A stretch of 64,000 nt of DNA, from positions 12-64,011 of the forward strand of contig CAYXTN010000002.1 of the NCBI GenBank assembly GCA_964468085.1, written 5' to 3'. Below, piece by piece: positions 6,001 to 30,564 of this stretch (its first letter is position 1; every line of letters starts with the position of its first letter). The notes under the pieces were generated by a model. The model made no database searches, was not told where the DNA came from, and saw only the letters and a list, made by a program, of their open reading frames with translations. Both the position numbers and the translations under genes were made by a program. Origin of the DNA: an uncultured Clostridia bacterium (GTDB lineage: Bacteria > Bacillota > Clostridia > Christensenellales > Borkfalkiaceae).

Positions 6001-9000
6001 GTCATTGACTCTATCGTTGCCGAGCGGCTTACGCTCCGAGACGGGCGTTATGAGGGCATATTAAGCGGCAAGAATAGGGCAGAGGTAATCGAAAAGCTGT
6101 TTACTAAGCTCAACAGTACACCTGAGGGCTACCGTATAGGTGTTGCGTTGGATATTGCCGACTACATCATAAACAACGCAATCCTGACCGATATGTACGA
6201 GACCTATAACGACGACTCGTATGCTATGGGTGTTTTGTCGGTTATGCGCCACTATATGCACGGTATGGATTTAAGCGGCATACAGAGCGAGATTCAATAC
6301 AAATTCGATAAGAAAAACAGCATAAACCTCGTCTGGGGAGCCAAACAGGACGGTATTGCACCTGATGTGGTTGCTCAGGAGTTAGAGGGCTACGGAATAC
6401 ACATCGAGGCTATAAACGAGGCAGAGCAGTTTTTTGAAATGCTGGAACTCTACGAGAGCGCAAAAGAGCAGGTAAACAAAAGAGTTGAAAAAATTATGCT
6501 TACCGCCATCGGTAGCCAGAGCGAGATTGAGCAGTTAAGGCAGCAGATCGCTCGTGATGTGCTTATGGCATACGACAAAAAAGGTACCAAGTCTAAGTAC
6601 GCTAAGCTCGTTGAGCAGTACACCAACAAAATAGCTAACCTCAAAAAGGATCTGAGCACGGCTTACAAGCGCAACACGCTCACCAACAGAATAATCGACG
6701 GGGCGGCTTATTTGCGTGATATAGCCACTAAGCGCAATTATGTGGGGGCGGAGATTTTTGCGGCTCCTGAACTTACATCGTGGCTCAAACAGCTTGGTAA
6801 GATAAAATACCGCTCCGACCTGCGCAAGTCTGGCGTTCGTAAAATCCTGCTCGACTACGGGCTGTTTTACAACACGAATAATGCGCTGCTGTACGACGAG
6901 AATCCCGACCTGAGCTACATCGACAATAATGTAATCGACGCTCTTAACTTTATCAGACAGAACGCCCTCAGCACTAAGCCTCTTTCGATGGAGGAATTGC
7001 AGGCGGCGGAGATTATTATTGCCTCGGCAAAGCACCTTTTCAATAACTACGATCAGGTGATTATTGAGGGTAAAAAGGCGAAAATTACCGACCTTGCCAC
7101 TGAGGGCAACGAAATAATCAAAAAGACTAAGAACAGGACGAGCAAGGGCTTTTTCAACCAGATTTACGGCGTATTCAACAAAATAATCGAGCCTCGTGTG
7201 GTAATAAAATCGTTGGAGAACTTTAACCCTAACGGCATACTTACACGAGCGTACAACGAGGTTACGAGGGGCGAGACGGAGGCAGGACTACTTTACATCG
7301 AGCTCACAAACGACATCGACACTTACATTAAGCAACACAGGCGTTTCAAAAATCGCCTCAGCTCGCAATATGTAACGGTTGCAGGAGCCGAGCTTACCGT
7401 GGGGCAGGCAATATCCCTCTACGAACTTTCTAAGCGTCCGCAGGCGCAGGAGGGTTTGTACGAGTCTGGATTTAGCTATATCGACAAAAAGGGCAGTAAG
7501 CAGACCGCTCACATTACGGAGGCGGATATTACTGCGATGTACGACGCTTTCACGGACACCGACAAAGGATTTATCGAGCTCGTAGAGACATTTTTCAATG
7601 TTGCAAGTAAGCAAGTCAAGACTGACGCTGATATGCAGATTTTGGGCTATACAAACACCTCAGAGGAGTTTTATTATCCCATCAAGCGTGATAGCGGAAC
7701 GATTGCAAAAAATATCACCGACGCTCGATCCATAATGTCGGATTGGGCGAATGTGTATAACTTTTCTTTCAACAAAGATGTTAAGACGGGAGCCAAAAAT
7801 AAGCTCTTTGTAACCGATGTTTATAGCGTCCTTACACGCCACGCAAAGCAGCTCTCGACCTACGCCAGAATGACGGTGCCGCTCAAAAATTTCAGCCAGA
7901 TATACGCAAAGAATATAGGCGATAAGACGAATGTCGTAAGCATACGCAACACCATCAATGAGCAGGTATGGGGCGGTGCAGAGGGCTATTTAAGCAAGCT
8001 ATTCTCCGATATTCAGGGCAGAGCTACCAGTAGCTCCATCATTGAGAAAATGAGGGGCGCATACGCCAAATACCAGCTCGGCGCAAATCTCAAAGTCATT
8101 GTTTCTCAGATAACATCTTATCCGACAGCAGGCATAATGCTCGATACGGGCGTAATGGCTAAGGGCTTTGTTATGAAAACGAATTGGGCGGCGATGGATA
8201 AATACTGCCCGTATGCTCGTGTGCGTAACTACGAGCGTGGTATAGTCAAGGCGGAGGGCGTTATCGACAAAATAGGTAAGGTTGGCGATGTACTCACTAA
8301 GCCTATACAGTGGACGGATAGATTTACGATAGGTAGGCTCTGGAATGCTTGTCAGTTGCAGGTACAAAAAGACACGGGGCTCAAATTCGGCTCCGTGGAG
8401 AATATGCAAAAGGCAGGCGTTATGTTGGAGGAGGTTATTCGCCTCACGCAGCCGAACTACACAAACACGGAACGCTCGGAGCTTATGCGTTCAGACAGCG
8501 ACCTCGTAAGGAGCTTTACGATGTTTACCTCCGTGCCGCTCAAACAGCTTTCGAGGCTCGTTGAATCGTTTGGAGAGTTTAACGCCCTGCGTTCGCTCAT
8601 AAAGAGCGGAGACACAGACGCTACGCTCGCTCAGCGTTATAAGCTGGCAAAGAAAAAGCTGCGCAGGACGCTCGCCTCCGTAACGGTTGCAAACCTGATG
8701 TATGTGCTTGTCGGACAGTTTTTCAAATTCCTGTACAACAATATGGCAGAGGACGACGAGGAGGGCAAGGTTACGGCAAAATCCGTATTCCTTGATATGC
8801 TCAAAGACTTTGGCAGCACGACGATAGGTATGCTCCCCATCGTAAGGGATATATACAGCTATTTCGTTGACGGTTACGAAATTAACAGCTTTACGGCAGA
8901 TATGCTCAACAGCATAATCGGATCCACAAAATCGTTATTCGAGCTGGCGCAAAAGGCGGCAAGCGGAGAGGAGATCTCCACGCAGGATTATATGTCGATT

Positions 9001-9888
9001 TTCCGCAATTCGATTTACGCCATAGGGCAAGTTACGGGCATACCGTTTAGGAATATCAATAACACCATTACGGGGCTTGTAAAGCGTTTCAGCCCGTCTG
9101 CGGCGTACTCTTACACATCGCTTTTCTACAACCATAAGTACAGCACCGACATAAAGGACGCTCTCAAAAAGGGCGACTATGAGCTTGCAGAGACGATTAT
9201 GGGAATGATGTTGAAAGACGATAGGACGGGCGGTTTAAGCAGTAAGGCGACGAGAAAGCTCATTGAGTTGTACGACGCAGGGTTTACCGTTCTGCCTAAG
9301 AGCATAGGCGACACACTCACATACGAGGGTGAGACAATCCAGCTCACGGCGGCGCAACGGAAAGAGTTTAAGACGGTGTACAGTCAAGCAAACGCCGAAA
9401 TCGAAAAGCTGGTAAACAGTGCAGAGTTTGCGTCTCTCCCTGCCGAACAGCAGGCTAAGGCAATAAAGCTCCTGTACGACGCTTATTACAGCAAGGCGCA
9501 AGCCACCGTATTAAAGGTGCCGACAGACAATAAAATTATTATGCTTAACAGCGCAATATCCGCCTCCGTGCTGGCTACTCATTTGGCGGCAATATCCACC
9601 ATCGAATCAGACACCGACAAAAAGGGTAATGTAATCAACGGCTCCAAAAAGGCTAAGATTATCAAGTATGTAATGGCGCAAAAGCTCTCGATGGCGCAAA
9701 AACTGTTGCTTATACTTGCCTTAGGTTATACTATCAAGGACGGCGATATAAGGGGTGTTTCCGCCGCCAAAGCCAAGAGTACAGTTGCTCGTTACATAAC
9801 CAACCTTAAACTCTCGAAAGAGGAAAAAACCGCCCTTGCCGAGAAATGCGGCTTGACGGTAAAAAACGGACGGATATACGCCAGATAA
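1..9888 (+). CDS. Giant polyvalent-type virion/effector protein, more than 3,290 aa and 5'-partial because the ORF is open at the window edge. It has a Gly/Ala-rich hydrophobic N-region, a zincin-like HExxH domain, several effector-like modules including three tandem ART-like modules, and a long helical C-terminal region.
   Basis: There is a single uninterrupted frame-1 ORF from base 1 to the stop at 9888. An HEFTH motif lies at 2020-2034. Five [DS]x[IFM]RYAL linker motifs occur at aa 1143, 1398, 1560, 1743 and 1947. Three modules each carry YHG[TS]..F[TY][VT]F, then G.YF[YT], then GYDG[VI]. The gene sits immediately upstream of the capsid module. Confidence 0.85.
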   Translation, partial: GFLQSIEGIWDYTAGGLADLFGAHDWAEKQIANDWVNYGHADEWFNPSQGWQVAGDVMGGIGTSLPAIATVAAAAAIAYFSGGTLAPVAAGMIGGVVAGLGAAGTATKEAYRETGQLTGKEWGYGTLSGFTEGAMEGVSDAIGFGVGSIAKNLAGSTAKASAKAVGTQVAKSAARQTFGKTILKSFLSEAFEEGVQELLDPVWKRITYDPNAENATFQQVAYAALVGGLSGAIMGGADVSVRNGINYFHGSKVNANGGVNGVISLAEEIARTEGVNQSGNAQVEFVVDTLNELQESLKSTGGEVKTAKQKMLVGMLSKANTAAPLSIVVHQNADAIIADAETTVKRLNDIGYKTSKGEAITVEMLLDGVKGERGTTEYRKSISEAMRTNEALRSVAVMSAAGQLNMDAARFQQSTLRGEQLFNQSDLNHFVETATEAQKRDVGERLGITDWATVTADELKSRIVEFSTNGGMDQYINERNEIKKLSQLEISKKGLPKYVGSIKQDGAVRYKFGDASVAIVKNGDTYLVYDYANDVASKPLTKTEANRVIKEIYAASVQSATDSNIQTKAQQETQQLDTFARENIPDYKKLVGAQQQAVRQTLRQARAAGVSEADQILYASVAARSGINIEFVSAEELGEKNADAGYRLRDGKILVNREIANNPKARTAAKILLHEFTHGMIHRGYAVKGKKGNQHLENKVLNDFFTTAIKGLSVEQQVEILTPYIERHGVKMQDFLDGKVDISVDTYIELREELAAHFVERELGSSAALQRIISDKPSFKDKLLSFLKRAKADYSSNEKLSRAANALLKKYQKFFNQYSSQNRFSPTVASDLSAYQRTQTTEAAETRLALSASEFEHTLDNLDSFKSVDEIKSYFSDVHEMINGEYYGSPHTMAELNEQIRKRAEKVMQALNLEKEAISQWRKKHSHKKKIDLTTKAQIEAIDKQYQKAIKNNDLETARRLVEQMAIQKGYSVTDYRIDHRAPCADGSNASLDDVSSMFGEDIYSDKAARYFGTYEGFDAESIRYIQQAKGKPNGTVIAYRAVPVSVKSDQIRNGDWITLTRQYAVNHGESNIIGNYRIIHKKVRIADVYTNGDSIHEFGYDDGKQYFYRDTVNFRKLADTITFDDEGNPIRLKDRFNYRNSDIRYALSPMTEEQYRFVSKLSVVEATQTENSRYSVYCENNSGLLEYEASGLTYEKLAKYFGGELATEITLRATETGKTVKVLRDTLAPIVDRYKSLSNITPDIYKIAKKEFGTTTNVQVAGYINLDGTMLDFGGGYDYRLLDHRDISSIMSELSGTQAMNAYIAQGNIRIMPESPSIELDYQHEPTAKQYTTIRKALDTLLAKLDTYGKFYLEFSNANSSVDSREYGRNTPTGKIISDIQYFYKNGVLPQQSELSKFRYALPTSDSQGRTLTAEQRAFFKDTMAVDENGHLLTVYHGTRSGEFTVFEHGKGTKNDAGWLGEGFYFYGDEHEASIYAMGGGRVVEAYLNVKNPYYATEQEFNRLAELDNEIESRKFSDSLKAEGYDGVYYNGDLRQEWVVFDSNQIKLTSNENPSLNADIRYALPETDSAGKTLSEQQRRFFNDSKIVDEQGRLLPVYHGSPKAGFTVFNTSLEGSYFTADEQYAQEYARGDKSKVYSVYLNIKKPFDTRDTAARKIFEKEFYGKWGNGAPLTARGLLDWTDGADMYDFLQEKGYDYDGIIIDEGGVPDANSGVRDRGISYVAFSPEQIKQTTNLAPTSDSDIRYALNTKTASDGRKLTAKQRQFFNNTVAVDSDGKLRVEYHGTDAQFYTFRNQGQNSRQMYGVGFYFTPYEDEAMGYGKRVVKAFLNIQQPIIYGEKHITEAQWAQYLDYCKEHANEYVEGVWKGNSITSFDYRDVIDVKNDSVLVTEFVNHISGGSGDVAVAYLRMLRDSLGYDGIQRGEYLIAFTPEQIKKITNTDPTSSVDMRYALSNHDANPEIDPTESDNSGAIGGLTRGQRAKFVANNTKFKVYSKLDAVSVIDSIVAERLTLRDGRYEGILSGKNRAEVIEKLFTKLNSTPEGYRIGVALDIADYIINNAILTDMYETYNDDSYAMGVLSVMRHYMHGMDLSGIQSEIQYKFDKKNSINLVWGAKQDGIAPDVVAQELEGYGIHIEAINEAEQFFEMLELYESAKEQVNKRVEKIMLTAIGSQSEIEQLRQQIARDVLMAYDKKGTKSKYAKLVEQYTNKIANLKKDLSTAYKRNTLTNRIIDGAAYLRDIATKRNYVGAEIFAAPELTSWLKQLGKIKYRSDLRKSGVRKILLDYGLFYNTNNALLYDENPDLSYIDNNVIDALNFIRQNALSTKPLSMEELQAAEIIIASAKHLFNNYDQVIIEGKKAKITDLATEGNEIIKKTKNRTSKGFFNQIYGVFNKIIEPRVVIKSLENFNPNGILTRAYNEVTRGETEAGLLYIELTNDIDTYIKQHRRFKNRLSSQYVTVAGAELTVGQAISLYELSKRPQAQEGLYESGFSYIDKKGSKQTAHITEADITAMYDAFTDTDKGFIELVETFFNVASKQVKTDADMQILGYTNTSEEFYYPIKRDSGTIAKNITDARSIMSDWANVYNFSFNKDVKTGAKNKLFVTDVYSVLTRHAKQLSTYARMTVPLKNFSQIYAKNIGDKTNVVSIRNTINEQVWGGAEGYLSKLFSDIQGRATSSSIIEKMRGAYAKYQLGANLKVIVSQITSYPTAGIMLDTGVMAKGFVMKTNWAAMDKYCPYARVRNYERGIVKAEGVIDKIGKVGDVLTKPIQWTDRFTIGRLWNACQLQVQKDTGLKFGSVENMQKAGVMLEEVIRLTQPNYTNTERSELMRSDSDLVRSFTMFTSVPLKQLSRLVESFGEFNALRSLIKSGDTDATLAQRYKLAKKKLRRTLASVTVANLMYVLVGQFFKFLYNNMAEDDEEGKVTAKSVFLDMLKDFGSTTIGMLPIVRDIYSYFVDGYEINSFTADMLNSIIGSTKSLFELAQKAASGEEISTQDYMSIFRNSIYAIGQVTGIPFRNINNTITGLVKRFSPSAAYSYTSLFYNHKYSTDIKDALKKGDYELAETIMGMMLKDDRTGGLSSKATRKLIELYDAGFTVLPKSIGDTLTYEGETIQLTAAQRKEFKTVYSQANAEIEKLVNSAEFASLPAEQQAKAIKLLYDAYYSKAQATVLKVPTDNKIIMLNSAISASVLATHLAAISTIESDTDKKGNVINGSKKAKIIKYVMAQKLSMAQKLLLILALGYTIKDGDIRGVSAAKAKSTVARYITNLKLSKEEKTALAEKCGLTVKNGRIYAR
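2020..2034 (+). other. HExxH (HEFTH) zinc-metallopeptidase signature inside the giant protein
   Basis: The translated context is AKILLHEFTHGMIHRG. It is in frame at aa 672 of the window ORF. Confidence 0.6.
4198..5844 (+). repeat. Three diverged tandem protein-level repeats (4198-4683, 4684-5232, 5233-5844), each an ART-like module bounded by RYAL linkers
   Basis: The three modules align by eye: RYALP.SD..G..LT..QR.FF.D....D..G.LL.VYHG.....FTVF...G.YF.......A..Y......V...YLN[IV]..P....GYDG.......E.....F...QIK. Confidence 0.75.
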
Positions 9889-11197: not shown

Positions 11198-11707
11198 ATG
11201 AAAAACAAAGTTACACAGCAGGACATCGACGAGATATTTAAGAATGGCACTCTGACGGTAGAGACCATCGGAGAAAAGACGACTATGGTGCGTCTGGTTA
11301 CGAAAGAGGGCTATGAGATAATCGAGACCTCGGCGTGTGTCGATAAGGCAAACTACAATGAGGCTATCGGGGCGGAGATCTGCCGCAAACGCATTGAGGA
11401 TAAACTCTGGGCGTATGAGGGTTATCTCCTCCAAAAAGAACTCGCCAAAGACAACACCGCCTGTATGAGTTTCGGAAAAGCTATCGAGGCTCTGAAAGCA
11501 GGCAATAAGGTAGCAAGAAAGGGCTGGAACGGCAAAGGAATTTACCTTGAACTCCAAAAGCCCGACGAGCACTCAAAAATGAGCCTGCCTTACATCTACA
11601 TCGTAACAAACTCGCTCGTATCGGATAATCCCGACGCACCGAGAGGAGTTGTGCCGTGGCTTGCCTCTCAGACGGATATGCTCTGCGAGGATTGGGTAAT
11701 CGTATAA
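11198..11707 (+). CDS. Two-domain phage protein: N-terminal N4 Gp49/Sf6 gene 66-like domain fused to a C-terminal DUF2829 (Tad2-like) domain
   Basis: The RBS reads cggagg. The N-terminal half (ETSACVDKANYNEAIGAEICRKRIEDKLWAYEGYLLQKEL) matches my memory of the Gp49_66 family signature. The C-terminal half (FGKAIEALKAGNKVARKGWNGKGIYLEL...PYIYIV...VPWLASQTDMLCEDWVIV) matches the DUF2829 signature. Confidence 0.75.
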   Translation: MKNKVTQQDIDEIFKNGTLTVETIGEKTTMVRLVTKEGYEIIETSACVDKANYNEAIGAEICRKRIEDKLWAYEGYLLQKELAKDNTACMSFGKAIEALKAGNKVARKGWNGKGIYLELQKPDEHSKMSLPYIYIVTNSLVSDNPDAPRGVVPWLASQTDMLCEDWVIV

Positions 11708-18231: not shown

Positions 18232-19821
18232 GTGAAAAAATTACTCAATATCACAAACGAGCAAATAAAAGAGAGAGGTGTGCAGGCGTTAGCCGACAGA
18301 CCTAACGCCGCCAACCAATACGGACAGAGTGGGCTTACGGCGGCGCAGTTAAAGCTCTGGTTTGATAAGCTCGCCACATTCCTTGCAGGCAAGATTAACG
18401 AGATACAAAATGTTATTTCGGGCGAGGAGGCAGGCGAGTACATCAGGGTAAAGCTGGACGACTACGGTGTTGATAACCTCGACAGTCTGGTTGCGGCTTT
18501 CCTGAGCGGCGATTTTGCGGCGGACATTCTCAAAGTTTATCCGTCCGTAAGCGCAACGCAGGCTGTGGCGTTACAGACGCTCTTAAACAACACGGCTCTC
18601 ACTATAAGCCAACACGCAGAAAAACTTGACGCTCTCGATACGGGCAAGCTCGATAAGGTTACGGCGTCGCATACATACAGGCGAGCCTACATCATAACGC
18701 CTGAGGGCGAGCAGAGCGTAATAATCGTCTCTGAGAGCCCTGCTGAGGGGCGTGTGCCTGTTTACACGACGGAGGGCAGGATTAACGCTGCGGATCCTGT
18801 TGTGGACGGACAGGTGGCTACTAAGCGTTATACGGACGCTCAGGATAAAAAGCTGGCGTGTAATATCGACGCTGAAATAGATCCTACCAACTATGTAATG
18901 ACGGTCAAGCTCAAAAACAGTCTCGGTCAACAGCTTAGCCAGACGCAGATTGACTTACCGCTCGAAACGGTGGTAGTGGGCGGCAGGTACGACGAGGCGA
19001 GCAAGCAGGTTGTCCTGACGCTTGAAAACGGCGAGGATATTACTTTTAGTATTGCAGACCTCATAGACGGGCTCGTAAGCAGCTCTAAGCATAACAGCGA
19101 CATTGAGCAGGCAAACGAGAGAATCAACGATACGAACGCCGACCTCAACGCATTTAAGGACTATGTGGAGGAGCATAAGGTCTATGCCTCTGCGTCGATG
19201 TATGCGGAGGAGGCGGAGACGGCAAGAGGCTATGTCGGCGGCGGCAAGATAGACAGGCAATTCCGTCAAATCTTTGCGCACGGTGCTTTTGCGCTCGATG
19301 TGTCGATGGATAGCGACTATAAGCTGACGGTTGCTCTTAAAAACAAAAAGGGCGAGACGATAAGCAGCGGTATGGTTGACCTGCCTATTGAAAGCCTGAT
19401 CGCCCACGCCTCATACAAAAATAAAATTCTTACGCTTACTTTCCAGAACGGGGAGCCGCTGAATATCAACATTTCGGAGATTGTGAGCGGACTCGTACCC
19501 GAAACGAGAAAGATAAACGACAAACCGCTTACGGCGGACATCACGCTTATTGCAAGCGATGTAGGGGCGTATGCAAAGGACGAAACTTACTCTAAGGCTC
19601 AGACGAATACAGCCATAAATAACGCCGTGGACGACGCTAAGACGACGCTCAGGGGCGAAATGGCAGAGATGGGCGGCGGAGCAGGCGGAGGCTCTGATGG
19701 GGCTACGGAGGTGTTTTACGCTCAGGAGGCGGAAACAGCTCACGGCTATACGAAAGGCGGAGCCATCGACAAACAATTTAAGGCAATTTTAAGGCGTTTG
19801 AAAACGCTCGAAAATAATTAA
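18232..19821 (+). CDS. Tail fibre-like protein with an internal two-fold duplication
   Basis: The start is GTG, preceded by aaggagg. The unit Y[VK][ML]TV.LKN..G...S....DLP[LI]E occurs twice, and the motif YA.EAETA.GY..GG.ID.QF occurs twice. Confidence 0.6.
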   Translation: MKKLLNITNEQIKERGVQALADRPNAANQYGQSGLTAAQLKLWFDKLATFLAGKINEIQNVISGEEAGEYIRVKLDDYGVDNLDSLVAAFLSGDFAADILKVYPSVSATQAVALQTLLNNTALTISQHAEKLDALDTGKLDKVTASHTYRRAYIITPEGEQSVIIVSESPAEGRVPVYTTEGRINAADPVVDGQVATKRYTDAQDKKLACNIDAEIDPTNYVMTVKLKNSLGQQLSQTQIDLPLETVVVGGRYDEASKQVVLTLENGEDITFSIADLIDGLVSSSKHNSDIEQANERINDTNADLNAFKDYVEEHKVYASASMYAEEAETARGYVGGGKIDRQFRQIFAHGAFALDVSMDSDYKLTVALKNKKGETISSGMVDLPIESLIAHASYKNKILTLTFQNGEPLNINISEIVSGLVPETRKINDKPLTADITLIASDVGAYAKDETYSKAQTNTAINNAVDDAKTTLRGEMAEMGGGAGGGSDGATEVFYAQEAETAHGYTKGGAIDKQFKAILRRLKTLENN

Positions 19822-19836
19822 CAGGAGGACAATTTA

Positions 19837-20886
19837 ATGGTATCTGAAAAGAGCAAAATTTACGGCGTAGATAATGTGGGGCAGTCCACGCCTACGCTTG
19901 CGAGGACGGATAGCGCAATCGGGTTGACGGTAACGGTAGGCACGAGCGAAATCAAAAGCGATTTTGACCGTTGCTACCCGTGGAGCGATATGCACGAGGT
20001 CGTGGACGAGCACGGAAATGTGTTTATCAAAATCCCTAAGTTTTACAGCAGAATTACGAAAAATACCAACGGTACCCATAAGCACCAGCTTTCGGGCTAC
20101 CGTTACGATGGTTTTACCACGCTGTTTGTGGACGGACAGGGCAACGAAATCGACTATGTGCTTGTCGGCAAGTACGAGGCGAGCGGCAGCAAGAGTAGGG
20201 CGTATTCCCAGAAAGGCAAGACCTGTCTCGTCAATATCACTCTGCCTGAAATGCGGACGGCTTGCAGGGCAAACGGTGAGGGCTACCAGCAGTACGACTT
20301 GCTGATAGACCAGATCATTAAAGAGCTGTGGCTTATCGAGATGGCAACTACAAACTGTCAGTCCATTATGTACGGCTACGCAAACGGCAACTCGGCGGCA
20401 GTACAGACGGGCAGAACGGACGGCGTTAAAACCGCCTCTGGCTCCGAGGTAAGCAACACGGACGGCAAACACGCCTGCAAGTACAGAGGCATTGAGAATC
20501 CGTGGGGCAATATCTGGAAATGGGTTGACGGTATCAATTTCCACGACAGCGAAATGTACATCTGCCTCGATCCTACAAAGTATGAATCGGACAAATTTGC
20601 GCCGCCTTATTTCTATGTGGGCAGCTCCGAGGTTGACGGGTATGTAAGCGGCATTGAATACTTTGACAAATTCCCTCTCCTCGGCTTTCCTACTGAGGGA
20701 GACGCAAGCGAGACCACTCATTACTGCGATTACGGCTATGTGGAGCCTGAGGGCGACTATGTGCTGCGTGTCGGCGGTACTTGGAGCGACGGGCTCGATG
20801 CTGGTCTTTGGCTTCTGTATGGTTACGTTGACTCGTCTTTCTACGTCTCGTACTGCGGCGGTCGCCTTTGTTATAAGCCTCTTTAA
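19837..20886 (+). CDS. DGR target protein: variable receptor-binding protein with a C-terminal lectin-fold-type variable region
   Basis: The RBS reads aggagg. The last ~40 codons are the VR, which pairs with the downstream TR. The C-terminal sequence is GGTWSDGLDAGLW...GGR. Confidence 0.85.
   Translation: MVSEKSKIYGVDNVGQSTPTLARTDSAIGLTVTVGTSEIKSDFDRCYPWSDMHEVVDEHGNVFIKIPKFYSRITKNTNGTHKHQLSGYRYDGFTTLFVDGQGNEIDYVLVGKYEASGSKSRAYSQKGKTCLVNITLPEMRTACRANGEGYQQYDLLIDQIIKELWLIEMATTNCQSIMYGYANGNSAAVQTGRTDGVKTASGSEVSNTDGKHACKYRGIENPWGNIWKWVDGINFHDSEMYICLDPTKYESDKFAPPYFYVGSSEVDGYVSGIEYFDKFPLLGFPTEGDASETTHYCDYGYVEPEGDYVLRVGGTWSDGLDAGLWLLYGYVDSSFYVSYCGGRLCYKPL
20761..20869 (+). repeat. DGR variable repeat (VR)
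   Basis: It gives an ungapped 109-nt alignment to 20962-21070. There are 20 mismatches, all at positions where the TR has A. Confidence 0.9.
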
Positions 20887-20896
20887 GAGAGGGATT

Positions 20897-20922
20897 GCTA
20901 AGGGGGAAACCTCCCCCTTAGC
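20897..20922 (+). promoter_or_regulatory. Perfect 11-bp hairpin with a 4-nt loop downstream of the VR; candidate DGR target-recognition cruciform, possibly also a terminator
   Basis: The stem is gctaaggggga / tcccccttagc with the loop aacc. It lies about 27 nt after the VR end. Confidence 0.6.
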
Positions 20923-20961
20923 ATATATTTAATTCAACATTACAGGGTAGTGTGTGCAGCG

Positions 20962-21070
20962 GTGCTGAATGTCGGCGGTAATTGGAACAACAGGCTCAAT
21001 GCTGGTCTTTGGAATCTGAATGGTAACAATGACTCGTCTAACTACAACTCGAACTACGGCGGTCGCATTT
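20962..21070 (+). repeat. DGR template repeat (TR)
   Basis: It is the invariant, adenine-rich (AAY-rich) copy of the VR. It lies in the non-coding gap between the target gene and the RT. Confidence 0.9.
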
Positions 21071-21185
21071 TAATCTTAATTCGGTCTATGAAACACGCAC
21101 AATCCTTGCCCCTTGGCAAAAAACACTTCGATAAGAGGGCGGCTTAGTAGGTTAAATCTCGAAACGCCGTGAGAAGATTAAAAGT

Positions 21186-22283
21186 ATGAAACGGGTAGGC
21201 TATTTATACGAAAAGATGTTAAACCTTGACCTCATAAAGCTGGCGATACATAAGGCAGCTCAGGGCAAGACAACACGAGGCTACATAGCAGTAGTCCTTA
21301 ATGATATTGATAGCTACGCCCAGCAAATAAAAACTATGCTTGAAACGGACAGCGTAACGCTGAGCCCAAACAGGCAAATTACACTCTTTGACCGCTCCTG
21401 TCAAAAGACGAGGATTATAACGGTACCAAAGTTTTATCCAGACCAGATAATACATTGGGTGGTAATGCTCGTTATGGAGCCCATCATAAAGCGTGGTATG
21501 TACCGATATTCCTGCGGTAGCGTACCAAACAGGGGCGGTATGGAGGCAAAACGCTTTGTAGAGCGTGTTATCGAGAAAGACAAAGCTCGGTATGTCGCAA
21601 AGCTGGATATATCAAAGTTTTTCAACAATGTAAAGCCAGCAATCCTGATGTCTCTATTTCGGCGCAAAATCAAAGACGAGCGGTTTTTGGGGCTGATAGA
21701 GAAAATCTTGGAGAACGGCGGCAACTGCCTCCCGATAGGATATTACACCTCGCAATGGTTTAGCAATTTCTATTTAGAGAGATTCGACCACTTTGTGAAA
21801 GAGCAGCTAAGAGTGCAGGACTACATAAGGTTTGTGGACGATATGGTGTTATTCGGCACGAACAAACGAAAGCTCCGCAGGGCTGTCGAGGCAATGAACG
21901 AGTATCTGAAAGCTAACCTCGGCGTGGAACTGAAAGGCAATTATCAGTTCTGGAAAATCCATAGCCGCCCGATAGACTTTGTGGGATTCCGCTTTTACAA
22001 GAACAAAACGCTGCTCAGAAAGAAAATCTACTACCGTTTATGTCGTCGCCTGCGGAATGTCAAAAAGGCGAACTACATCACGGTAAAGCAAGCTCAGGGG
22101 CTGTTGTCTCTTACAGGCTGGCTAACTCACATTAACGGCTTAAAATTCTACAAGGAGAAAATTTACCCGATTGCTCCTAAGTGGAAACTAAAAAGCATAG
22201 TAAGCAAACACTCAAAAAAATTAAACGGAGGTAACATCAATGGCACGGGTATTCAGCAAAGAAAAGTGGCTGCAAACGGCTAA
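21186..22283 (+). CDS. DGR-type reverse transcriptase
   Basis: RT motifs are present: KLDISKFF, LPIGYYTSQWFSNFYL (the DGR-characteristic [LIV]GxxxSQ) and RFVDDMVLFG. It is adjacent to the TR/VR pair. Confidence 0.9.
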   Translation: MKRVGYLYEKMLNLDLIKLAIHKAAQGKTTRGYIAVVLNDIDSYAQQIKTMLETDSVTLSPNRQITLFDRSCQKTRIITVPKFYPDQIIHWVVMLVMEPIIKRGMYRYSCGSVPNRGGMEAKRFVERVIEKDKARYVAKLDISKFFNNVKPAILMSLFRRKIKDERFLGLIEKILENGGNCLPIGYYTSQWFSNFYLERFDHFVKEQLRVQDYIRFVDDMVLFGTNKRKLRRAVEAMNEYLKANLGVELKGNYQFWKIHSRPIDFVGFRFYKNKTLLRKKIYYRLCRRLRNVKKANYITVKQAQGLLSLTGWLTHINGLKFYKEKIYPIAPKWKLKSIVSKHSKKLNGGNINGTGIQQRKVAANG

Positions 22284-22446
22284 CAAGGACAGGGCAAAGG
22301 GTATTTTAACCCAGCAGGAAATCGACGACGCTCAGGAAATCTGGGTAAACGATCTCGACGGCAAAACCTACGAAGAAATCAACGCAAAGGGCGATGTCTG
22401 CACCAGAGAGGATTGGTTTGTTGAGACGGGCGGCGACAAAGGGTAA
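22240..22446 (+). CDS. Small acidic protein (68 aa) overlapping the RT 3' end, function unknown
   Basis: The RBS cggagg lies 9 nt before the ATG at 22240. The gene overlaps the RT by 44 nt. Confidence 0.5.
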   Translation: MARVFSKEKWLQTANKDRAKGILTQQEIDDAQEIWVNDLDGKTYEEINAKGDVCTREDWFVETGGDKG

Positions 22447-22457
22447 AGGGGCGCAGT

Positions 22458-22919
22458 ATGAAAATGGAATACAAACTCATTGACGACTGTCGCAAAGGCT
22501 TTATCCTGACGAGGGAGCCCGAAACGGTAACGGGAGAGCTGATTATATCGTTTACGGGCGCACCTGCAAACGCTACGGCGGTTTTTGAGAACGCAGAGGG
22601 CAATTCCCTGTACAGGCTCCTGAAAGACGAGACCTGCTCAATTCCTGCCGATTTCCTGAAAGGCTGTGTAAAGGTAACGGTTGCCGTTCTGAACGGAAAA
22701 GAGAGGGCACCGAAATACGCCTGCGAGGGCATTTACACGAAACCTGTACCGCCTGTCGGCGTTGTCGTCTGTCCTAACGGCATAGACACGGCGAAAGAGG
22801 TTATCGCCGCCCACGGCGAGATACAGGAAATCAAAAACCTTATTAAGGGGCTCAACAAGAGCCTCGACACCCTGAACGAGAAACTTGTAAAGTTGCTCGA
22901 TGGGTACGACTTTGAATAA
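22458..22919 (+). CDS. Hypothetical phage protein (153 aa) with a C-terminal coiled coil
   Basis: It is a clean ORF with a G-rich RBS region and sits in the co-directional late operon. Confidence 0.55.
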   Translation: MKMEYKLIDDCRKGFILTREPETVTGELIISFTGAPANATAVFENAEGNSLYRLLKDETCSIPADFLKGCVKVTVAVLNGKERAPKYACEGIYTKPVPPVGVVVCPNGIDTAKEVIAAHGEIQEIKNLIKGLNKSLDTLNEKLVKLLDGYDFE

Positions 22920-22934
22920 CGGGAGGCAAATACT

Positions 22935-23594
22935 ATGACTAAAAGATTACATACGGCATTATTGCTGACAATATGCGTTTCGCTGTGCTTGGCTATTATG
23001 CTGCTCTGTTGCGGTTTCACCGTAAGCACCGCACACGCCGCCACGAGCAACGAAACGCAGGCTGTGGCTGTCCTGAGCGACGGCGAGGACGACGGAGCGG
23101 CAGAGCCCTCCGAAACGGCTCCTGCGGTGCCTGAGACGCTGTGGACGAGGATTGAGCAGTGGTTTTCCAAAAACCTTGCAGAGTTTTTAGGATCCGTCAA
23201 TCTCGGCGCAGTTGCGGCGTGTATTGTTATGGTTATTCTCGAACGCAGAGGCAATAAGAAAGCTGCCAAAATTACAGCAGAATCGCTTGGGATAAATACT
23301 GACAGCAACAGCGAGGTTGTAAAGGCTGTAAACGGGCTTATTGAGAATTACAACGAGACTCTGGATAAACTACACGCTATGGAGACTAAGGCGGAACAGC
23401 AGGAGTATATTATTACAGAACTCAAAACCTCCTGCAAGGCGATTCTCGAAATCCTTGCTACGGTTTACGCCAACAATAAAAATATCCCTCAGGCGGTGAA
23501 AGACCTTGTAAATATCAAGTATGTGCAGGCTCTGAAAGCGGAGCTGCCTGTGTCCGTTGAGACGGAGGATAAGGGCGACGCAGAGGAGGGCTAA
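22935..23594 (+). CDS. Secreted or membrane-anchored phage protein (219 aa)
   Basis: The RBS reads gggagg. An N-terminal signal-like segment ends in AHAA. A second hydrophobic segment reads LGAVAACIVMVILE, and a coiled-coil tail follows. Confidence 0.6.
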   Translation: MTKRLHTALLLTICVSLCLAIMLLCCGFTVSTAHAATSNETQAVAVLSDGEDDGAAEPSETAPAVPETLWTRIEQWFSKNLAEFLGSVNLGAVAACIVMVILERRGNKKAAKITAESLGINTDSNSEVVKAVNGLIENYNETLDKLHAMETKAEQQEYIITELKTSCKAILEILATVYANNKNIPQAVKDLVNIKYVQALKAELPVSVETEDKGDAEEG

Positions 23595-23595
23595 T

Positions 23596-23997
23596 ATGAA
23601 AAATAAGACGAAAGGCAACATCATAAAATGGGTGTCGATCATACTCTGTGTTGCCGCTCCTCTTGCCGCCACCTTATCTCAATTTCCTGTCTGGATAGCG
23701 ACGAGCGACAGGGCAACCATCTCTGGTATAGTGGTCGTCCTCTTGTTCGTCTCCTGCGTTCCGTTTTTCAGGGTGATTAAGGAAAAGCTGAAATCCCCTG
23801 CGGCGTGGCTGGTGTGGACTATCCTCGCAGTCATTACAATTCTTTTAGCAAATATTATTTTTCAAATGCGGTTTGTCTGTATCGTCGGTGCCGTCTCTAA
23901 CGGCATAGGTGCCCTCCTGTTTAAGTGGGCGGAGCATATATCGAATAAACCAGATAAACCTAAGGACGGAGGTAACGGCAATGGCGGAGCCGATTAA
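23596..23997 (+). CDS. Small polytopic membrane protein (133 aa, ~4 TM), holin-like by size and topology only
   Basis: The ATG at 23596 follows gaggaggg. There are four hydrophobic stretches and a charged Gly/Asn/Asp C-terminal tail. Confidence 0.55.
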   Translation: MKNKTKGNIIKWVSIILCVAAPLAATLSQFPVWIATSDRATISGIVVVLLFVSCVPFFRVIKEKLKSPAAWLVWTILAVITILLANIIFQMRFVCIVGAVSNGIGALLFKWAEHISNKPDKPKDGGNGNGGAD

Positions 23998-24982
23998 GCC
24001 GATAGGCGAAAACAACAAAGAAAATAAGCCCTCGGTGGGTAAATCCATCGAGAGTATGCACAACACTAAGAAAAAGATCGCAAAAGGTTTTCTCAACAAT
24101 TCGGGAATTTTTGTAGGCGTATTCCTCGTGTTTGTTGTTATCGTGGTGTTTACCACGGATATACAGCTCAGCTCGTTTGCGGATTGGGCTAAGCTCGGTC
24201 TGGCGTTCTTTGTCTTGCTATTCTGCTCATATTCGATGTACATAAATTTTTCCGATACGGGTATGCGAGCAGGCAAGGAAAGCGACACCTACAAAAACAC
24301 TCTGGACGATTACGACAAAATCAAAAAGCAGATAATCGAGGACGGGCAACAGGGGCGGCTCCTTGAATTTTGCAGGCACTTTATTGTGGAGGAACTGCAA
24401 AGCACACGCCACGCCATTATAACCGAGGTAGGGCTTGATTTTAAGCTCTACAAGGAAAAGTACATAGGTCTGAGTAAAAAGGCGTTGGAACAGGTTAAAG
24501 AGCTCACGGAGCCTCAGAGAAAGGCGATTATAAAGGCAAACAGCGTCAAGCCTATCAAGCTAACGCCTGAGATGTTTTTCAAGCGTGGCAGGGGCGCAGG
24601 GCGCAGGGTGCCGCTCGGTACAAATCCTCACACGAAAAAGGGCGTAGCGTTCGCAGTCAAGTTTGTAAAAATTTCCGTAACAACGCTCCTGACGAGTATC
24701 ATTGTCTTAGATGTCGTCGTAAATCCGAATTGGGCGACCTTTGCGGCTTGCTGTCTGAAACTTATGCCTGTAATCCTGAATGGCTTTACAGGTTACAAGA
24801 TGGGCTATGAGAATATCGTGTACGATACGGTCAATTATATGAGCGACCAGATAGACCTTATCCATCAATTTCAGCAGTATGTGGCGGACAATCCTACACC
24901 AGAGGCTTTTACGGCTCCTGAGAGCGTGGAGGAAACGCCGCCCGATACAGAAAATACAGCGGCTCAGGACGAGGCTGTGTAG
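23981..24982 (+). CDS. Membrane protein (333 aa) with two pairs of TM segments flanking a helical cytosolic region
   Basis: The ATG at 23981 follows ggacggagg. It overlaps the previous gene by 17 nt. A terminator lies downstream. Confidence 0.6.
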   Translation: MAEPIKPIGENNKENKPSVGKSIESMHNTKKKIAKGFLNNSGIFVGVFLVFVVIVVFTTDIQLSSFADWAKLGLAFFVLLFCSYSMYINFSDTGMRAGKESDTYKNTLDDYDKIKKQIIEDGQQGRLLEFCRHFIVEELQSTRHAIITEVGLDFKLYKEKYIGLSKKALEQVKELTEPQRKAIIKANSVKPIKLTPEMFFKRGRGAGRRVPLGTNPHTKKGVAFAVKFVKISVTTLLTSIIVLDVVVNPNWATFAACCLKLMPVILNGFTGYKMGYENIVYDTVNYMSDQIDLIHQFQQYVADNPTPEAFTAPESVEETPPDTENTAAQDEAV

Positions 24983-25367: not shown

Positions 25368-26378
25368 ATGAGAGGTATGCGATACTCACCGAAAGAAAAG
25401 GAAAGAGCGTTGCGGTTGTGGCTCGTAGAGGGTAACGACATTCTCTGGGTTGCCAAAAAGACGAAATGCACGGAGCGCAGCTTATGGCGATGGAAAGCTC
25501 TTTACGATGGCACCCTGAAAAGCCTTGAAAACGGCTCCTGCGTTCCGCACACGCCGCATTTTAACGCACATACGAAAGAGGAGCGTAAGCAGATCGTGGA
25601 TATATTCACCGAGCACCCAGACATCACCTATGCGGAGGCTCTGGGGATTCTGCGCCAGCGTTACGCTTACAGCAGGACTTACTACGGGCTCTATCGGTTT
25701 GTGGTAAAGAACGGACTGCGCCCTCACGAGGAGGTCAAAGAGGTTTACAAACAGCAGCCGTACTTTACGCCTGAGATGTTAGGGCAGAAATGGCAGCTCG
25801 ATGTAAAGTTTGTGCCGAAAGAGTGCTACTTGGGGAATCTGGCTTACGAGAGGTTTTATCAGTACACGGTAATCGACGAGGCTACGAGGGAGAGATTTAT
25901 TTACGCCTATAACGAGCATAGCGGTTGGTCAACGGTTGATTTTATCAAGCGAGCCATCGTTTACTTTGGGTATATGCCTAACACGATACAGACGGATAAC
26001 GGCACGGAGTTTACTACTCCTGCGAACGCCAAAGAGGGTACCGTTCACATAATGGATATTCTCTTAGACAAGTTGCGGATCCGTCATAAGCTCATTGCGC
26101 CGAGAACACCGAGACATAACGGCAAGGTAGAGCGCAGCCATCGCTCAGACCAAGAGGCTTTTTATAATCACCTGACTTTTAACACGCTGGACGAATTGCA
26201 GGAAAAGATGGGAGAGTGGCTAAACAGATACAACGAACGCCCTCACTCCCAGCTCAGAAACAAAGAGGGTAAACGGGTTTGGTACTCGCCTCGGCAAAAG
26301 CGAGCTGAGCTTTTGGAAATCCTGAAAGAGTGCAGGGGTGAATACCGAGTACGGTTTATTAAGCCGAAAGCGGCTTAG
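25368..26378 (+). mobile_element. IS481-like (rve/DDE) transposase gene; element ends not identified
   Basis: The N-terminal region is HTH-like. The DDE triad context reads WQLDVKFVP, IQTDNGTEF and HNGKVERSHRS. It is a single 336-aa ORF at the phage/chromosome junction. Confidence 0.75.
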
Positions 26379-27377: not shown

Positions 27378-28727
27378 ATGGGAAGATATTTCGGAACGGA
27401 CGGTTTCAGGGGCGAGGCTAACGTCACACTGACCTGCGAACACGCATATAAAATCGGCGCATATCTGGGCTGGCAGCTTTGCCGCGCGGGCAAGTGCAAA
27501 GACGTGGTAATAGGCAGAGATACCCGCAAGTCGGGCGGTATGCTTGAAAGTGCGCTCGTCGCGGGGCTGACCTCGTCTGGCGCAAACGCCTACGTTTTGG
27601 GCGTCACCACAACGCCCGCTGTCGCGTTCACGGTTAAAAGAACGGGGCTTTCGTGCGGAGTGATGATTTCCGCAAGCCACAACCCCTACTACGATAACGG
27701 TATCAAGCTTTTCGGCGAGAACGGCGAGAAGATTAAAGAGGAAACGGTTGCGGGAATAGAGGACTTTATTGACGGCAAGTCGGACAAGCCCGCGCCCGCA
27801 TTGAAAAGTGATATAGGCAGTGTTGTCGCTTATGCGGACGGCAACGCGGAGTACGAAAAATTCCTCGTTAAAAACGGAATAAATCTTTCGGGCTTAAAGG
27901 TGGGGCTGGACTGCGCCAACGGCTCGGCTTACAAAATCGCGAGCGCGGTTTTCAATGCGCTCGGGGCTTTCGTTACGGCGATAAATTGCGCGCCCGACGG
28001 GCTCAACATAAACGCCGACTGCGGCTCTACGCATATAGAGGGCTTACAGAAGCTTGTCAAGGAAAAGGGGTTGGATATAGGGTTTGCCTACGACGGAGAC
28101 GCGGACAGATGTCTTGCCGTCGACGAGAAGGGCAACATAGTAAACGGCGATAAAATATTGTACCTTTGCGGCTCTTATCTAAAGGAGCGCGGACAGCTTG
28201 CGAATAATACTGTCGTAACTACAGTAATGTCCAATTTCGGACTGTACAAAGCGTTCGACAAGGCGGGCATAAATTACGCCAAAACCGCGGTAGGCGATAA
28301 ATACGTGCGGGAATATATGCTTTCGAGCGGCTGTACGCTGGGCGGCGAGCAGTCGGGGCACGTGATTTTCGGCGATATTGCGGGCACGGGCGACGGCATA
28401 CTTACAAGCCTTAAAATCGCTCAGGTTATGCTTGAAAAGGGCGGGGCTCTGTCAAGCCTTACCGCGACTGTAAAGGACTATCCTCAGGTGCTTTTGAACG
28501 TAAAGGTCTACGATAAAAAGGCGGCGCAGGAGGACAAGCTCGTAAAGCAAGCAATCGCCGCGGCGGAAGCCGAGCTCAAGGATAAGGGCAGAATTTTAGT
28601 GAGGGAATCGGGCACCGAACCGCTCGTTCGCGTAATGGTCGAGGCGGAGGATATAAAGGTGTGCGAGCGCCTTGCTTCAAGCGTTAAAGCCGCGATAGTT
28701 TCGGGCGGCTACGAGAGGTTAGACTGA
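27378..28727 (+). CDS. glmM: Phosphoglucosamine mutase
   Basis: The N-terminus reads YFGTDGFRG and the active-site loop reads SASHNPYYDNGIKLF. The length is 449 aa. Confidence 0.92.
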   Translation: MGRYFGTDGFRGEANVTLTCEHAYKIGAYLGWQLCRAGKCKDVVIGRDTRKSGGMLESALVAGLTSSGANAYVLGVTTTPAVAFTVKRTGLSCGVMISASHNPYYDNGIKLFGENGEKIKEETVAGIEDFIDGKSDKPAPALKSDIGSVVAYADGNAEYEKFLVKNGINLSGLKVGLDCANGSAYKIASAVFNALGAFVTAINCAPDGLNINADCGSTHIEGLQKLVKEKGLDIGFAYDGDADRCLAVDEKGNIVNGDKILYLCGSYLKERGQLANNTVVTTVMSNFGLYKAFDKAGINYAKTAVGDKYVREYMLSSGCTLGGEQSGHVIFGDIAGTGDGILTSLKIAQVMLEKGGALSSLTATVKDYPQVLLNVKVYDKKAAQEDKLVKQAIAAAEAELKDKGRILVRESGTEPLVRVMVEAEDIKVCERLASSVKAAIVSGGYERLD

Positions 28728-28728
28728 T

Positions 28729-30564
28729 ATGTGCGGAATAGTCGGATATACGGGAAAAAAACAGGCGACGCCGATACTTTTGGAGGGGCTTTCCAAGCTC
28801 GAATACCGCGGATACGATTCCGCGGGCGTTGCCGTGCAGAACAATAAAGGCAAACACGAGATAGTAAAGACTAACGGCAAGCTGAGCGTGCTGTCGGACA
28901 AACTCAAAAAGGGCAAGGCGCTCAAAGGCACGTGCGGCATAGGACATACCCGCTGGGCAACCCACGGTATGCCGTCGGAAATTAACGCTCACCCCCACAG
29001 CAACGACGACCAATCGATTGTGGCTGTGCACAACGGCATTATAGAAAACTACGTCGAGCTTAAAGAAAAACTGACGGGGAAAGGGTATACGTTCTATTCG
29101 GAAACGGACACCGAGATTGCCACCAAGCTCGTGGACTACTACTACAAAAAGTGGAAGAGCCCCCTCGAGGCGATGGTCAGCTTTACGCTGCGCGTGCGCG
29201 GCTCGTACGCGATTGCCGTAATGTTCGAGGACTATCCCGACGAAATTTATATTGCGAGAAAGGACAGCCCTTTAATCGTCGGCGTCAACGGCGACGGCGG
29301 CTTTGTCGCCTCCGACGTGCCCGCGATTTTGAAGTACACACGCAACATTTACTACGTTGACAATATGGAAATCGCCCGCGTCGAAGCGGGTAAGGCGACT
29401 TTCTATAACGTCGACCGCAAAGTAATCGAAAAACAGCCCGTGCATATCGACTGGGATTTGGACGCGGCGGAAAGGGGCGGTTACAAGCATTTCATGCTCA
29501 AGGAAATGCACGAACAGCCAAAGGTTGTGGCGGATACTTTAAATTCGTTTATTAAGGACGGCAAAATCGATTTGTCGGAAGCGGGAATTTCCGACGACGA
29601 ACTGTGCTCTTACAGCCGTATACGCATAGCGGCGTGCGGCTCGGCTTACCACGTGGGCGTGGTGGCAAAATACATTATCGAGGACTTGGCGCGCATTCCC
29701 GTGGACGTGGACGTCGCGTCCGAGTTCAGATACCGCAACCCGATATTCGGCGAAAACGAACTGTTCGTCGTAATCAGTCAATCGGGCGAAACGGCGGACT
29801 CGCTTGCGGCACTGAGAGGCGCAAAGGCTCAGGGGGTTAAAACGCTTGCGATAGTCAACGTGCTCGGCTCGGCGATTGCGCGCGAGGCGGACAGAGTACT
29901 CTACACCAAGGCGGGTCCCGAAATTTCGGTTGCGACGACCAAGGCGTACAGCGCGCAGCTAATCGTTGCGTACGTGCTTGCCGTTCAGCTCGCTTTCGTG
30001 AACGGAAAAATCGACGAGGACAGATACGCGCAGTTAATCGGAGATATGCTTGCACTGCCCGCGTCAATAGAGAAGATTTTATCCGACGACGAGTGGCTCA
30101 AATGGTTTGCAACCAAGATAGCCAATAAAAAGGACGTGTTCTTCATAGGCAGAGGCATAGACTACGCAATCTGCTTAGAGGGCAGTTTAAAGCTTAAAGA
30201 GATAAGCTATATACATTCGGAGGCGTACGCGGCGGGCGAGTTAAAGCACGGCACGATAAGCCTTATCGAGGAAGGCACGCTGGTCATCGGACTTATTACT
30301 CAGTTGCAGCTTGCCGAAAAGTCGGTGAGCAACCTTGCCGAAGTCAAGTCGCGCGGCGCGCAGATTATGAATCTGACGCTCGACGGCAATTACACGATGG
30401 GCGAACATTCCGAATTTACCGTATACGTTCCCAAAACTTCGCCGTACTTTACGGCAAGTCTGGCGGTCGTTCCGTTGCAGCTTTTGAGCTACTACGTAAG
30501 CGTTGCTAAGGGGTTGGATGTGGATATGCCGCGCAACCTCGCAAAGTGCGTATCCGTGGAATAG
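28729..30564 (+). CDS. glmS: Glutamine--fructose-6-phosphate aminotransferase (isomerising)
   Basis: The N-terminal nucleophile context is MCGIVGY. SIS domains are present and the C-terminus reads KCVSVE. The length is 611 aa. Confidence 0.95.
   Translation: MCGIVGYTGKKQATPILLEGLSKLEYRGYDSAGVAVQNNKGKHEIVKTNGKLSVLSDKLKKGKALKGTCGIGHTRWATHGMPSEINAHPHSNDDQSIVAVHNGIIENYVELKEKLTGKGYTFYSETDTEIATKLVDYYYKKWKSPLEAMVSFTLRVRGSYAIAVMFEDYPDEIYIARKDSPLIVGVNGDGGFVASDVPAILKYTRNIYYVDNMEIARVEAGKATFYNVDRKVIEKQPVHIDWDLDAAERGGYKHFMLKEMHEQPKVVADTLNSFIKDGKIDLSEAGISDDELCSYSRIRIAACGSAYHVGVVAKYIIEDLARIPVDVDVASEFRYRNPIFGENELFVVISQSGETADSLAALRGAKAQGVKTLAIVNVLGSAIAREADRVLYTKAGPEISVATTKAYSAQLIVAYVLAVQLAFVNGKIDEDRYAQLIGDMLALPASIEKILSDDEWLKWFATKIANKKDVFFIGRGIDYAICLEGSLKLKEISYIHSEAYAAGELKHGTISLIEEGTLVIGLITQLQLAEKSVSNLAEVKSRGAQIMNLTLDGNYTMGEHSEFTVYVPKTSPYFTASLAVVPLQLLSYYVSVAKGLDVDMPRNLAKCVSVE

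Follow-up and report, generated by a model that had tools for sequence, protein, structure and literature searches.

An accessory-less diversity-generating retroelement with a conserved RT-18 spacer RNA in the tail module of a Clostridia prophage

The diversity-generating retroelement (DGR) of Bordetella phage BPP-1 is arranged as mtd-avd-TR-brt, and transfers adenine-only changes from a template repeat (TR) to a variable repeat (VR) located in the C-terminal C-type-lectin (CLec) domain of a tail receptor-binding protein. Everything known of DGR mechanism has been learned from elements that contain avd. A survey of 372 DGRs found avd in 74% of them (Wu et al. 2018, NAR 46:11, PMC5758913). The same survey placed accessory-less DGRs (29%) in Architecture A, recognized an avd-less lineage, detected no avd at remote sites, and put forward the idea that homing is independent of Avd there. 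The question of how DGRs that lack avd, roughly one quarter of all, operate was raised in 2018, and we found no later experimental work on Avd-less DGRs in the literature. Here, we describe a locus in a 64,000-nucleotide (nt) stretch of DNA, hereafter the window, from an uncultured gut Clostridia bacterium (GenBank assembly GCA_964468085.1, contig CAYXTN010000002.1, positions 12 to 64,011). The locus is very likely a functional DGR of the accessory-less (Avd-less) class, and it lies in a prophage tail module; the host bacterium probably belongs to the Christensenellaceae. Many such loci exist, and this one does not by itself answer the question of 2018. All positions below are window positions, and the genes and elements given with them lie on the + strand.

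The VR (20761-20869) and the TR (20962-21070) are 109 nt each, align without gaps at a constant offset of 201 nt, and form the largest family in the repeat finder output for the window. On recount, 20 of the 109 positions differ, and all 20 differences are at TR adenines (8 A>G, 8 A>T, and 4 A>C). The other nine of the 29 TR adenines are unaltered in the VR, while none of the 80 non-adenine positions differs. The hypergeometric probability of such an adenine-only pattern is 2.8e-15. An earlier note, made from the sequence alone, had described a gapless pair with 20 adenine-only mismatches, an abrupt end of homology on both sides, and gaps of 92 nt between VR and TR and 115 nt between TR and the gene of the reverse transcriptase (RT); realignment reproduced each of these. 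No second VR was found on either strand of the 64 kb when the TR was scanned with its adenines as wildcards. The VR occupies codons 309-345 of a gene for a 349-amino-acid (aa) protein, in agreement with the earlier claim that diversified codons lie at the end of the protein encoded after the tail fibre. In the frame of this gene, the TR contains 12 AAY codons; the remaining codons with an adenine at position 1 or 2 are AGG, GAC, two TAC, and ATT. Once the codons of the two invariant 3'-most mismatches (see below) are set aside, arithmetic from the TR codon table gives about 15^12 x 3 x 4 x 4, or ~6e15, accessible protein variants.

The RT gene (21186-22283) codes for 365 aa in an uninterrupted open reading frame (ORF) that contains the LPIGYYTSQ and FVDD motifs, as the earlier note had read them. 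The product matches Pfam RVT_1 at 5.6e-14 and phrog_1423 at 5.8e-87, and it aligns over its full length with Brt, the RT of BPP-1 (26% identity over 320 aa, E 6e-30), the IGxxxSQ block being common to both. Its best relatives in deposited phages (tblastn) are encoded by Lactobacillus phage LBR48 (38%) and Butyrivibrio phages Arawn and Idris (36%), followed by crAss-like, Faecalibacterium, and Bordetella phages. A search of deposited phages at the DNA level gave no match. Were the enzyme the RT of another retroelement, such as a group II intron, a retron, or a defence RT (DRT), the repeat pair would be an ordinary diverged duplication. Hidden Markov models (HMMs) of all three kinds do match the protein weakly, as is expected of any prokaryotic RT, but the scores are far below the NCBIfam cut-offs (101.7 vs. 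300 bits for the group II intron, 56.3 vs. 235 bits for the retron, with cut-offs of 200-600 bits for the DRT models). An Rfam scan detected no group II intron or retron RNA in the window, and 20 adenine-only mismatches are not attainable by ordinary divergence at the probability given above. We therefore regard a different retroelement as extremely improbable. The motifs, the alignment with Brt, and the phage relatives, of which Arawn has a full VR/TR pair and LBR48 a TR-side RT-18 RNA (see below), rather than a position in an RT tree, argue for an RT of the DGR type. The DGR call of the earlier note, which was to fail if the RT grouped with retron or group II RTs, stands by these comparisons.

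The target gene (19837-20886) lies directly 3' of an ORF for a 529-aa tail-fibre-like protein. Its 349-aa product, a predicted tail or receptor-binding protein with the VR in the last ~40 codons, matches phrog_5302 ("tail protein") at 2.4e-61, and no Pfam family was matched. A profile of the C-terminal 230 aa, built from 21 diverse C-terminal domains, was compared with the PDB and matched 5vf4 at E 1.1e-10 over both domain halves. A shallower profile (A5) reached only E 0.46 to the same entry, and the match of the deeper profile to the VR segment of BPP-1 Mtd (1YU2) was weak, at E 0.24. PDB entry 5VF4 is TaqVP, the DGR variable protein of Thermus aquaticus, which has the CLec fold. The likeness to TaqVP, which is at the profile level only, covers both CLec halves, VR included, while the N-terminal ~120 aa of the target are unrelated to TaqVP and Mtd. 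These comparisons support a C-terminal domain of the CLec type.

Natural variation of the target was followed in six protein variants of one 90%-identity cluster, which come from different assemblies and not from reads. Within VR codons 309-345, variation was present in 14 of the 17 codons that have a TR adenine at position 1 or 2, and in none of the 20 others (Fisher 1.1e-7). In one allele, the only difference from the window protein is T315A, at a TR AAT codon. The population test proposed in the earlier note, VR polymorphism confined to TR adenines, is thus borne out at the level of alleles, and the element looks recently active. The two 3'-most mismatches between VR and TR, 20855 (TAC>TGC) and 20866 (ATT>CTT), are invariant across the six alleles, and for this reason ~18 rather than 20 VR positions look diversified. 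Separately, we observed that several of the clusters of target homologues (P0084, P0090, P0112, P0120, P0123, P0130, P0150, and P0157) contain 60-365 distinct members at 90% identity. The representatives of these clusters were seen on one or few contigs, a pattern as expected for hypervariable DGR targets.

Positions 20855 and 20866 look like a fixed difference between the VR and TR boundaries, of the kind seen between the initiation of mutagenic homing (IMH) site and IMH*, and not like products of mutagenesis, since neither varies among the six alleles and the A/C difference recurs among relatives. The boundary (20856-20869) consists of a GC-rich block at 20856-20865 (CGGCGGTCGC) followed by CTTT in the VR and ATTT in the TR; the block itself recurs in relatives, and the C (VR) vs. 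A (TR) difference at 20866 is present in nearly all close relatives. By analogy with the IMH of BPP-1, the GC-rich boundary may function as an IMH.

A perfect 12-bp hairpin with a 4-nt loop, AACC, is located at 20896-20923 (stem 20896-20907 / 20912-20923) and starts 26 nt after the VR. The perfect stem, the 4-nt loop, and the location 3' of the VR had all been recognized in the earlier note; its stem length of 11 bp and its distance from the VR are corrected here. Homing of BPP-1 requires a hairpin with GC-rich stems of 7-10 bp and loops of 4 nt, located 4-34 bp from the VR (Guo 2011, PMC3240598). The window hairpin fits this type of element, and we consider it a candidate target-recognition hairpin or cruciform that would act in homing; it possibly doubles as a terminator. 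In most relatives, including Arawn, a hairpin formed by a G-run and a C-run, typically GGGGGA-NNNN-TCCCCC with variable outer pairs, is found ~20-28 nt past the VR. Of 101 unique VR-TR spacers, 74 contain the motif G4-6/N4-10/C4-6, vs. 0.4% of shuffles; the motif is located no more than 60 nt past the VR in 79 of 121 loci and past the TR in none of the 121. Conservation was evaluated with this motif and with shuffles, RNAalifold pair counts being uninformative, as MAFFT had set the hairpins out of register. The loops vary among relatives (AACC, CACT, ACTC, and others) and are outside the GRNA consensus, and the T-rich tail that follows the window hairpin is not kept.

A second small inverted repeat, CCTCT/AGAGG, at 20878-20892, spans the TAA stop codon of the target gene (20884-20886) and is located just 5' of the main hairpin. 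Its arms covary in relatives (e.g., GCCGT...ACGGG). An extra G-run upstream of the G-run of the main hairpin makes alternative pairings with the C-run possible.

The spacer that separates the TR from the RT gene contains a structured RNA that was missed in the earlier note. A full-length match to the Rfam family RF03021, "RT-18 RNA" (model positions 1-84 of 84), was found at 21107-21184, with 51.8 bits vs. a gathering score of 41.3 and E 4e-8; it is the sole Rfam match in the window. RT-18 was published as one of 19 motifs near RT genes (Weinberg et al. 2017, PMC5737381), in a study that assigned RT-10 to the interval separating TR from RT in BPP-1, and speculated that DGRs are served by further RT motifs. 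The match directly upstream of the RT gene agrees with the published location; here, the RNA is placed between the TR and RT of Avd-less DGRs, a link that Wu et al. 2018 do not make. Of 20 diverse compact relatives, 19, phage LBR48 among them, have RT-18 above threshold in the corresponding place, as does L164, a related phage from IMG/VR. The total is 20 of 22 relatives scanned, the window not counted; Arawn is below the gathering score. At the equivalent place, BPP-1 has RF03022, "Phage_DGR", and four Avd-containing relatives (three cyanobacterial and one from Elusimicrobia) have neither family. Because RT-18 is kept in the TR-RT spacer of relatives, while BPP-1 has RF03022 and the four Avd-containing loci have neither, we assign RT-18, on the basis of covariance model matches, as the spacer RNA of this Avd-less clade. 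When folded alone, TR plus spacer was no more stable than shuffles (z 0.48), and the evidence for structure is the covariance model. The spacer RNA of BPP-1 primes cDNA synthesis in cis, and cryo-electron microscopy has visualized its 5' stem-loop gripping Avd and its 3' stem-loop gripping the RT. RT-18 may play a corresponding role here, cDNA priming included, in an element that has no Avd to grip.

An Avd was taken to be a basic protein with homology to bAvd (four-helix bundle, PF22296) and a length of about 110-130 aa. On both strands of window positions 1-27000, 57 ORFs code for 70-260 aa, and none matched Pfam bAvd PF22296 or PF05635; in a positive control, the small basic ORFs that immediately precede cyanobacterial DGR RTs matched PF22296 at 3e-21. 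An Avd HMM built from these control proteins, and phmmer with BPP-1 Avd, returned nothing better than E ~1 among 290 ORFs (>=50 aa) of the 64 kb. The earlier claim that there is no recognizable Avd gene thus holds across the entire window. The earlier note had also pointed to two small ORFs after the RT gene as places where an Avd homologue might be found. The first, orf68 (22240-22446, 68 aa, pI 4.6), overlaps the 3' end of the RT gene by 44 nt and has a GGAGG site 8 nt upstream of its start; the second, orf153 (22458-22919), codes for 153 aa with a pI of 5.3. Neither is Avd-like, and both were ruled out: hhalign probabilities against Avd are 0.3% for orf68 and 0.2% for orf153, their acidic pI values compare with 9.0-9.3 for the control Avds, and the model of orf68 is a strand-helix-helix-strand arrangement and not a four-helix bundle. 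No Pfam, PHROG, NCBIfam, or PADLOC match was obtained for either ORF.

To place the locus among its relatives, 160 loci with related RTs, from IMG/VR and GTDB species genomes, were scanned by an adenine-mismatch repeat finder that looked for the TR only near the RT. The VR-TR-RT layout is shared by about 120 loci, whose RTs are 35-90% identical to that of the window. The spacing is mostly 56-170 nt between VR and TR and mostly 105-200 nt between TR and RT, and each of these loci has 4-25 adenine mismatches. They come from Clostridia, Bacilli, and their phages, Butyrivibrio phage Arawn included; the genomes closest by RT (89-90%) are mouse-gut Christensenella and Christensenellaceae metagenome-assembled genomes (MAGs). 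The Avd HMM detected Avd only in 15 loci, mostly cyanobacterial, whose RTs are at most 32% identical, and these have the canonical order, with avd upstream and the TR downstream of the RT. The short gaps and the missing avd, which the earlier note took to be unusual, are in fact the norm in a large clade of Firmicutes phage DGRs described by Wu et al. 2018. The locus is a member of this already described Avd-less class, and compactness is the rule in its clade. Its features correspond to Architecture A1 of that survey and resemble "Lineage 3", of which it may be a member: target with VR, TR, and RT on one strand, the target upstream of the TR-RT core, no avd, HRDC, or MSL, and an origin in Firmicutes phages or prophages. 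The likeness to "Lineage 3" is one of layout. The A1 assignment, which also calls for the lack of CH1, is supported because the flanking ORFs have no family match, there is no Avd, and orf68 lies outside the module that is exchanged between phages (see below). We also noted a set of N-terminally shorter RT relatives in Peptococcia / Peptococcaceae MAGs (L125-L130), several of them from one Peptococcia MAG. These align with residues ~71-345 of the query at 43-45% identity, the adenine-mismatch finder detected no TR/VR pair beside them, and they may be truncated or non-DGR copies.

Among individual phages, Arawn (Arawn/Idris, NC_048848) has the same layout (VR, 131 nt, TR, 156 nt, RT) with a GGGGG/CCCCC hairpin, and LBR48 (NC_027990) has RT-18 ahead of the RT, as in the window. 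No VR/TR pair was found in the stretch of LBR48 that was scanned, that record beginning just upstream of the RT. In both LBR48 and Arawn, an acidic ORF overlaps the end of the RT gene, as it does in the window, but the RTs are only 36-38% identical to that of the window, and the target proteins and phage backbones differ. The DGR of BPP-1 and that of the window have several features in common. In both, only adenines change on transfer to a VR that encodes part of a tail protein's C-terminal CLec domain; the VR has a GC-rich boundary on its 3' side and is followed by a hairpin whose loop is 4 nt long; a structured RNA separates TR from RT; and the RTs are homologous. The BPP-1 element differs in having avd (387 nt) between VR and TR, with a gap of 422 nt vs. 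92 nt in the window, and in the family of its spacer RNA.

Every part of the complete DGR named in the earlier note, i.e., target with VR, hairpin, TR, and RT, is thus present, and a course of events can be proposed. The TR together with the downstream RT-18 RNA would be transcribed, and the adjacent RT would copy the TR into cDNA, misincorporating at adenines. The cDNA would then replace the VR at the 3' end of the gene for the 349-aa tail protein, guided by the GC-rich VR boundary and the hairpin downstream. As a result, the 12 AAY codons and a few others would be randomized in a ligand-binding domain of the CLec type, the likely effect being an altered host-receptor specificity.

Several observations weigh against this interpretation. 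Current activity in the lineage is deduced from six related alleles. The AlphaFold2 (AF2) model of the target, based on a 43-sequence alignment, is poor, with a predicted local distance difference test (pLDDT) score of 52, too low for fold confirmation; of the check for a C-type lectin or FGE-like fold suggested in the earlier note, the profile half succeeded and the model half did not. Foldseek matches of this model (LOV domains and Fabs, E about 1) were discarded as meaningless at such a pLDDT. The window hairpin also passes a simple terminator scan. Its AACC loop does not fit the GRNA consensus, which is sequence-critical in BPP-1 (loop GAAA). Finally, a protein cofactor of phage or host origin that escaped recognition may exist.

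The allele data, which are not direct reads of this genome, the hairpin loop, and the lack of Avd could also be accommodated by a decayed relic, in which the VR/TR pair and the RT ORF persist after diversification has ceased. Yet no interruption is seen in the RT ORF, which retains its catalytic motif, and conservation extends to the TR, RT-18, and the hairpin, each of them intact. Differences between near-identical alleles are confined to adenine codons, down to the single-residue difference described above, and about 120 related loci retain the same parts with their own adenine mismatches. We consider a relic unlikely, and a functional Avd-less DGR the far better account of the locus.

The extent of the element was delimited by a comparison with L164. 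In a blastn alignment with this phage, homology to the window covers 18296-20684 (77.6%) and 22227-24000 (75.3%), and between these blocks it is lost except for a 110-nt match at the TR. The L164 block at 2459-4041, which corresponds to window positions 20685-22226, contains its own TR/VR pair and RT-18. Identity between the two phages is 80% for the tail fibre, 72% for the body of the target, 91% for orf68, and 69% for orf153, but only 44% for the RT. It follows from the homology break that the exchanged unit extends from the VR end to the RT. The alignment shows a block of ~1.5 kb that apparently moves between phages as one cassette, approximately 20685-22226, comprising the target 3' end with the VR, the hairpin, the TR, RT-18, and the RT. 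Its right boundary is 13 nt before the start of orf68.

This boundary bears on the idea that orf68 is a new DGR accessory protein standing in for Avd in this lineage. Homologues of orf68 are found directly after the RT in 49 loci, more loci than for orf153 (24, namely those with a common phage backbone) or other backbone genes, and orf68 is kept in loci where conservation of orf153 and other backbone genes is not detectable. A search of IMG/VR with the orf68 alignment yielded 46 further loci, with an RT directly upstream in all 46. A small acidic ORF overlaps the end of the RT gene in nearly all Avd-less relatives, which recalls, by description, the acidic CH1 accessory of Wu et al. 2018. However, in L164 a 91% identical orf68 stands beside a 44% identical RT, on the other side of a recombination boundary, indicating that orf68 travels with the backbone. 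In locus L022, whose RT is 62% identical to that of the window, an unrelated acidic ORF occupies the place of orf68. Moreover, orf68 is acidic, while Avd is basic, and its AF2 model, a small fold with pLDDT 86, has no fold match in the PDB or BFVD. Given the contrast in identity between orf68 and the RT in L164, orf68 is probably a phage-backbone gene, of the tail module or other, and orf153 is likewise a neighbour from the phage backbone. An accessory role for orf68 in place of Avd thus appears improbable.

The same position was inspected in the relatives at large. Across L001-L146, the ORF that comes first after the RT is, with few exceptions among the Avd-less relatives, short and strongly acidic (pI 4.1-5.5), and it overlaps the 3' end of the RT gene by 3-100 nt. 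Position and charge are kept, yet the products belong to at least five mutually unrelated families by hhalign, and a single accessory family was therefore rejected. A domain of tail-fibre assembly chaperones, Phage_tail_APC (PF16778, 1.7e-13), is present in one of the families and a carbohydrate-binding module in a second; such diversity, with some of the families tail-related, is a further argument against orf68 as a stand-in for Avd.

Tentatively, the ~1.54-kb block at 20685-22226 might be a self-sufficient DGR that needs no element-encoded protein cofactor, with RT-18 taking the scaffolding and positioning role that Avd has in the BPP-1 ribonucleoprotein; we see this as a possibility somewhat short of an even chance. 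If true, it would be the smallest natural DGR unit, moving between phages as a cassette. What is new here is modest: RT-18 is assigned to the TR-RT spacer of Avd-less DGRs, an exchangeable module of ~1.5 kb is defined, and evidence is provided against orf68 as a cofactor. For the question of how Avd-less elements work, these results offer three handles, i.e., a 1.5-kb module with boundaries set by a natural swap between phages, a conserved, named RNA as the likely functional partner of the RT, and evidence that the machinery probably does not include the small conserved ORF that follows the RT gene. For engineered targeted mutagenesis, where current systems carry both brt and avd, a cassette this compact, with a single protein and a single RNA, would be appealing.

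The DGR is located at the right end of the prophage, in the tail module. Upstream of it are genes for a giant polyvalent protein, a gp49/Tad2-like fusion, a Mu gpT-like head protein, and tail proteins. The giant ORF (7-9888, at least 3293 aa) enters from the left end of the window and contains an ART-PolyVal domain (3.6e-60), the ADP-ribosyltransferase of polyvalent proteins, typical for phages or conjugative elements. The fusion, a 169-aa ORF at 11198-11707, joins a Phage_gp49_66 domain (3.1e-21) to a Tad2-like Thoeris anti-defence domain (7e-23), and is a candidate anti-Thoeris gene of the prophage. Downstream of the DGR, three membrane-protein ORFs are followed by an rve-family transposase/integrase ORF (25368-26378, 4e-15) and by host glmM and glmS at 27378-30564. 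The rve ORF and glmM/glmS probably mark the right junction of prophage and host, about 2.5 kb past the DGR neighbourhood.

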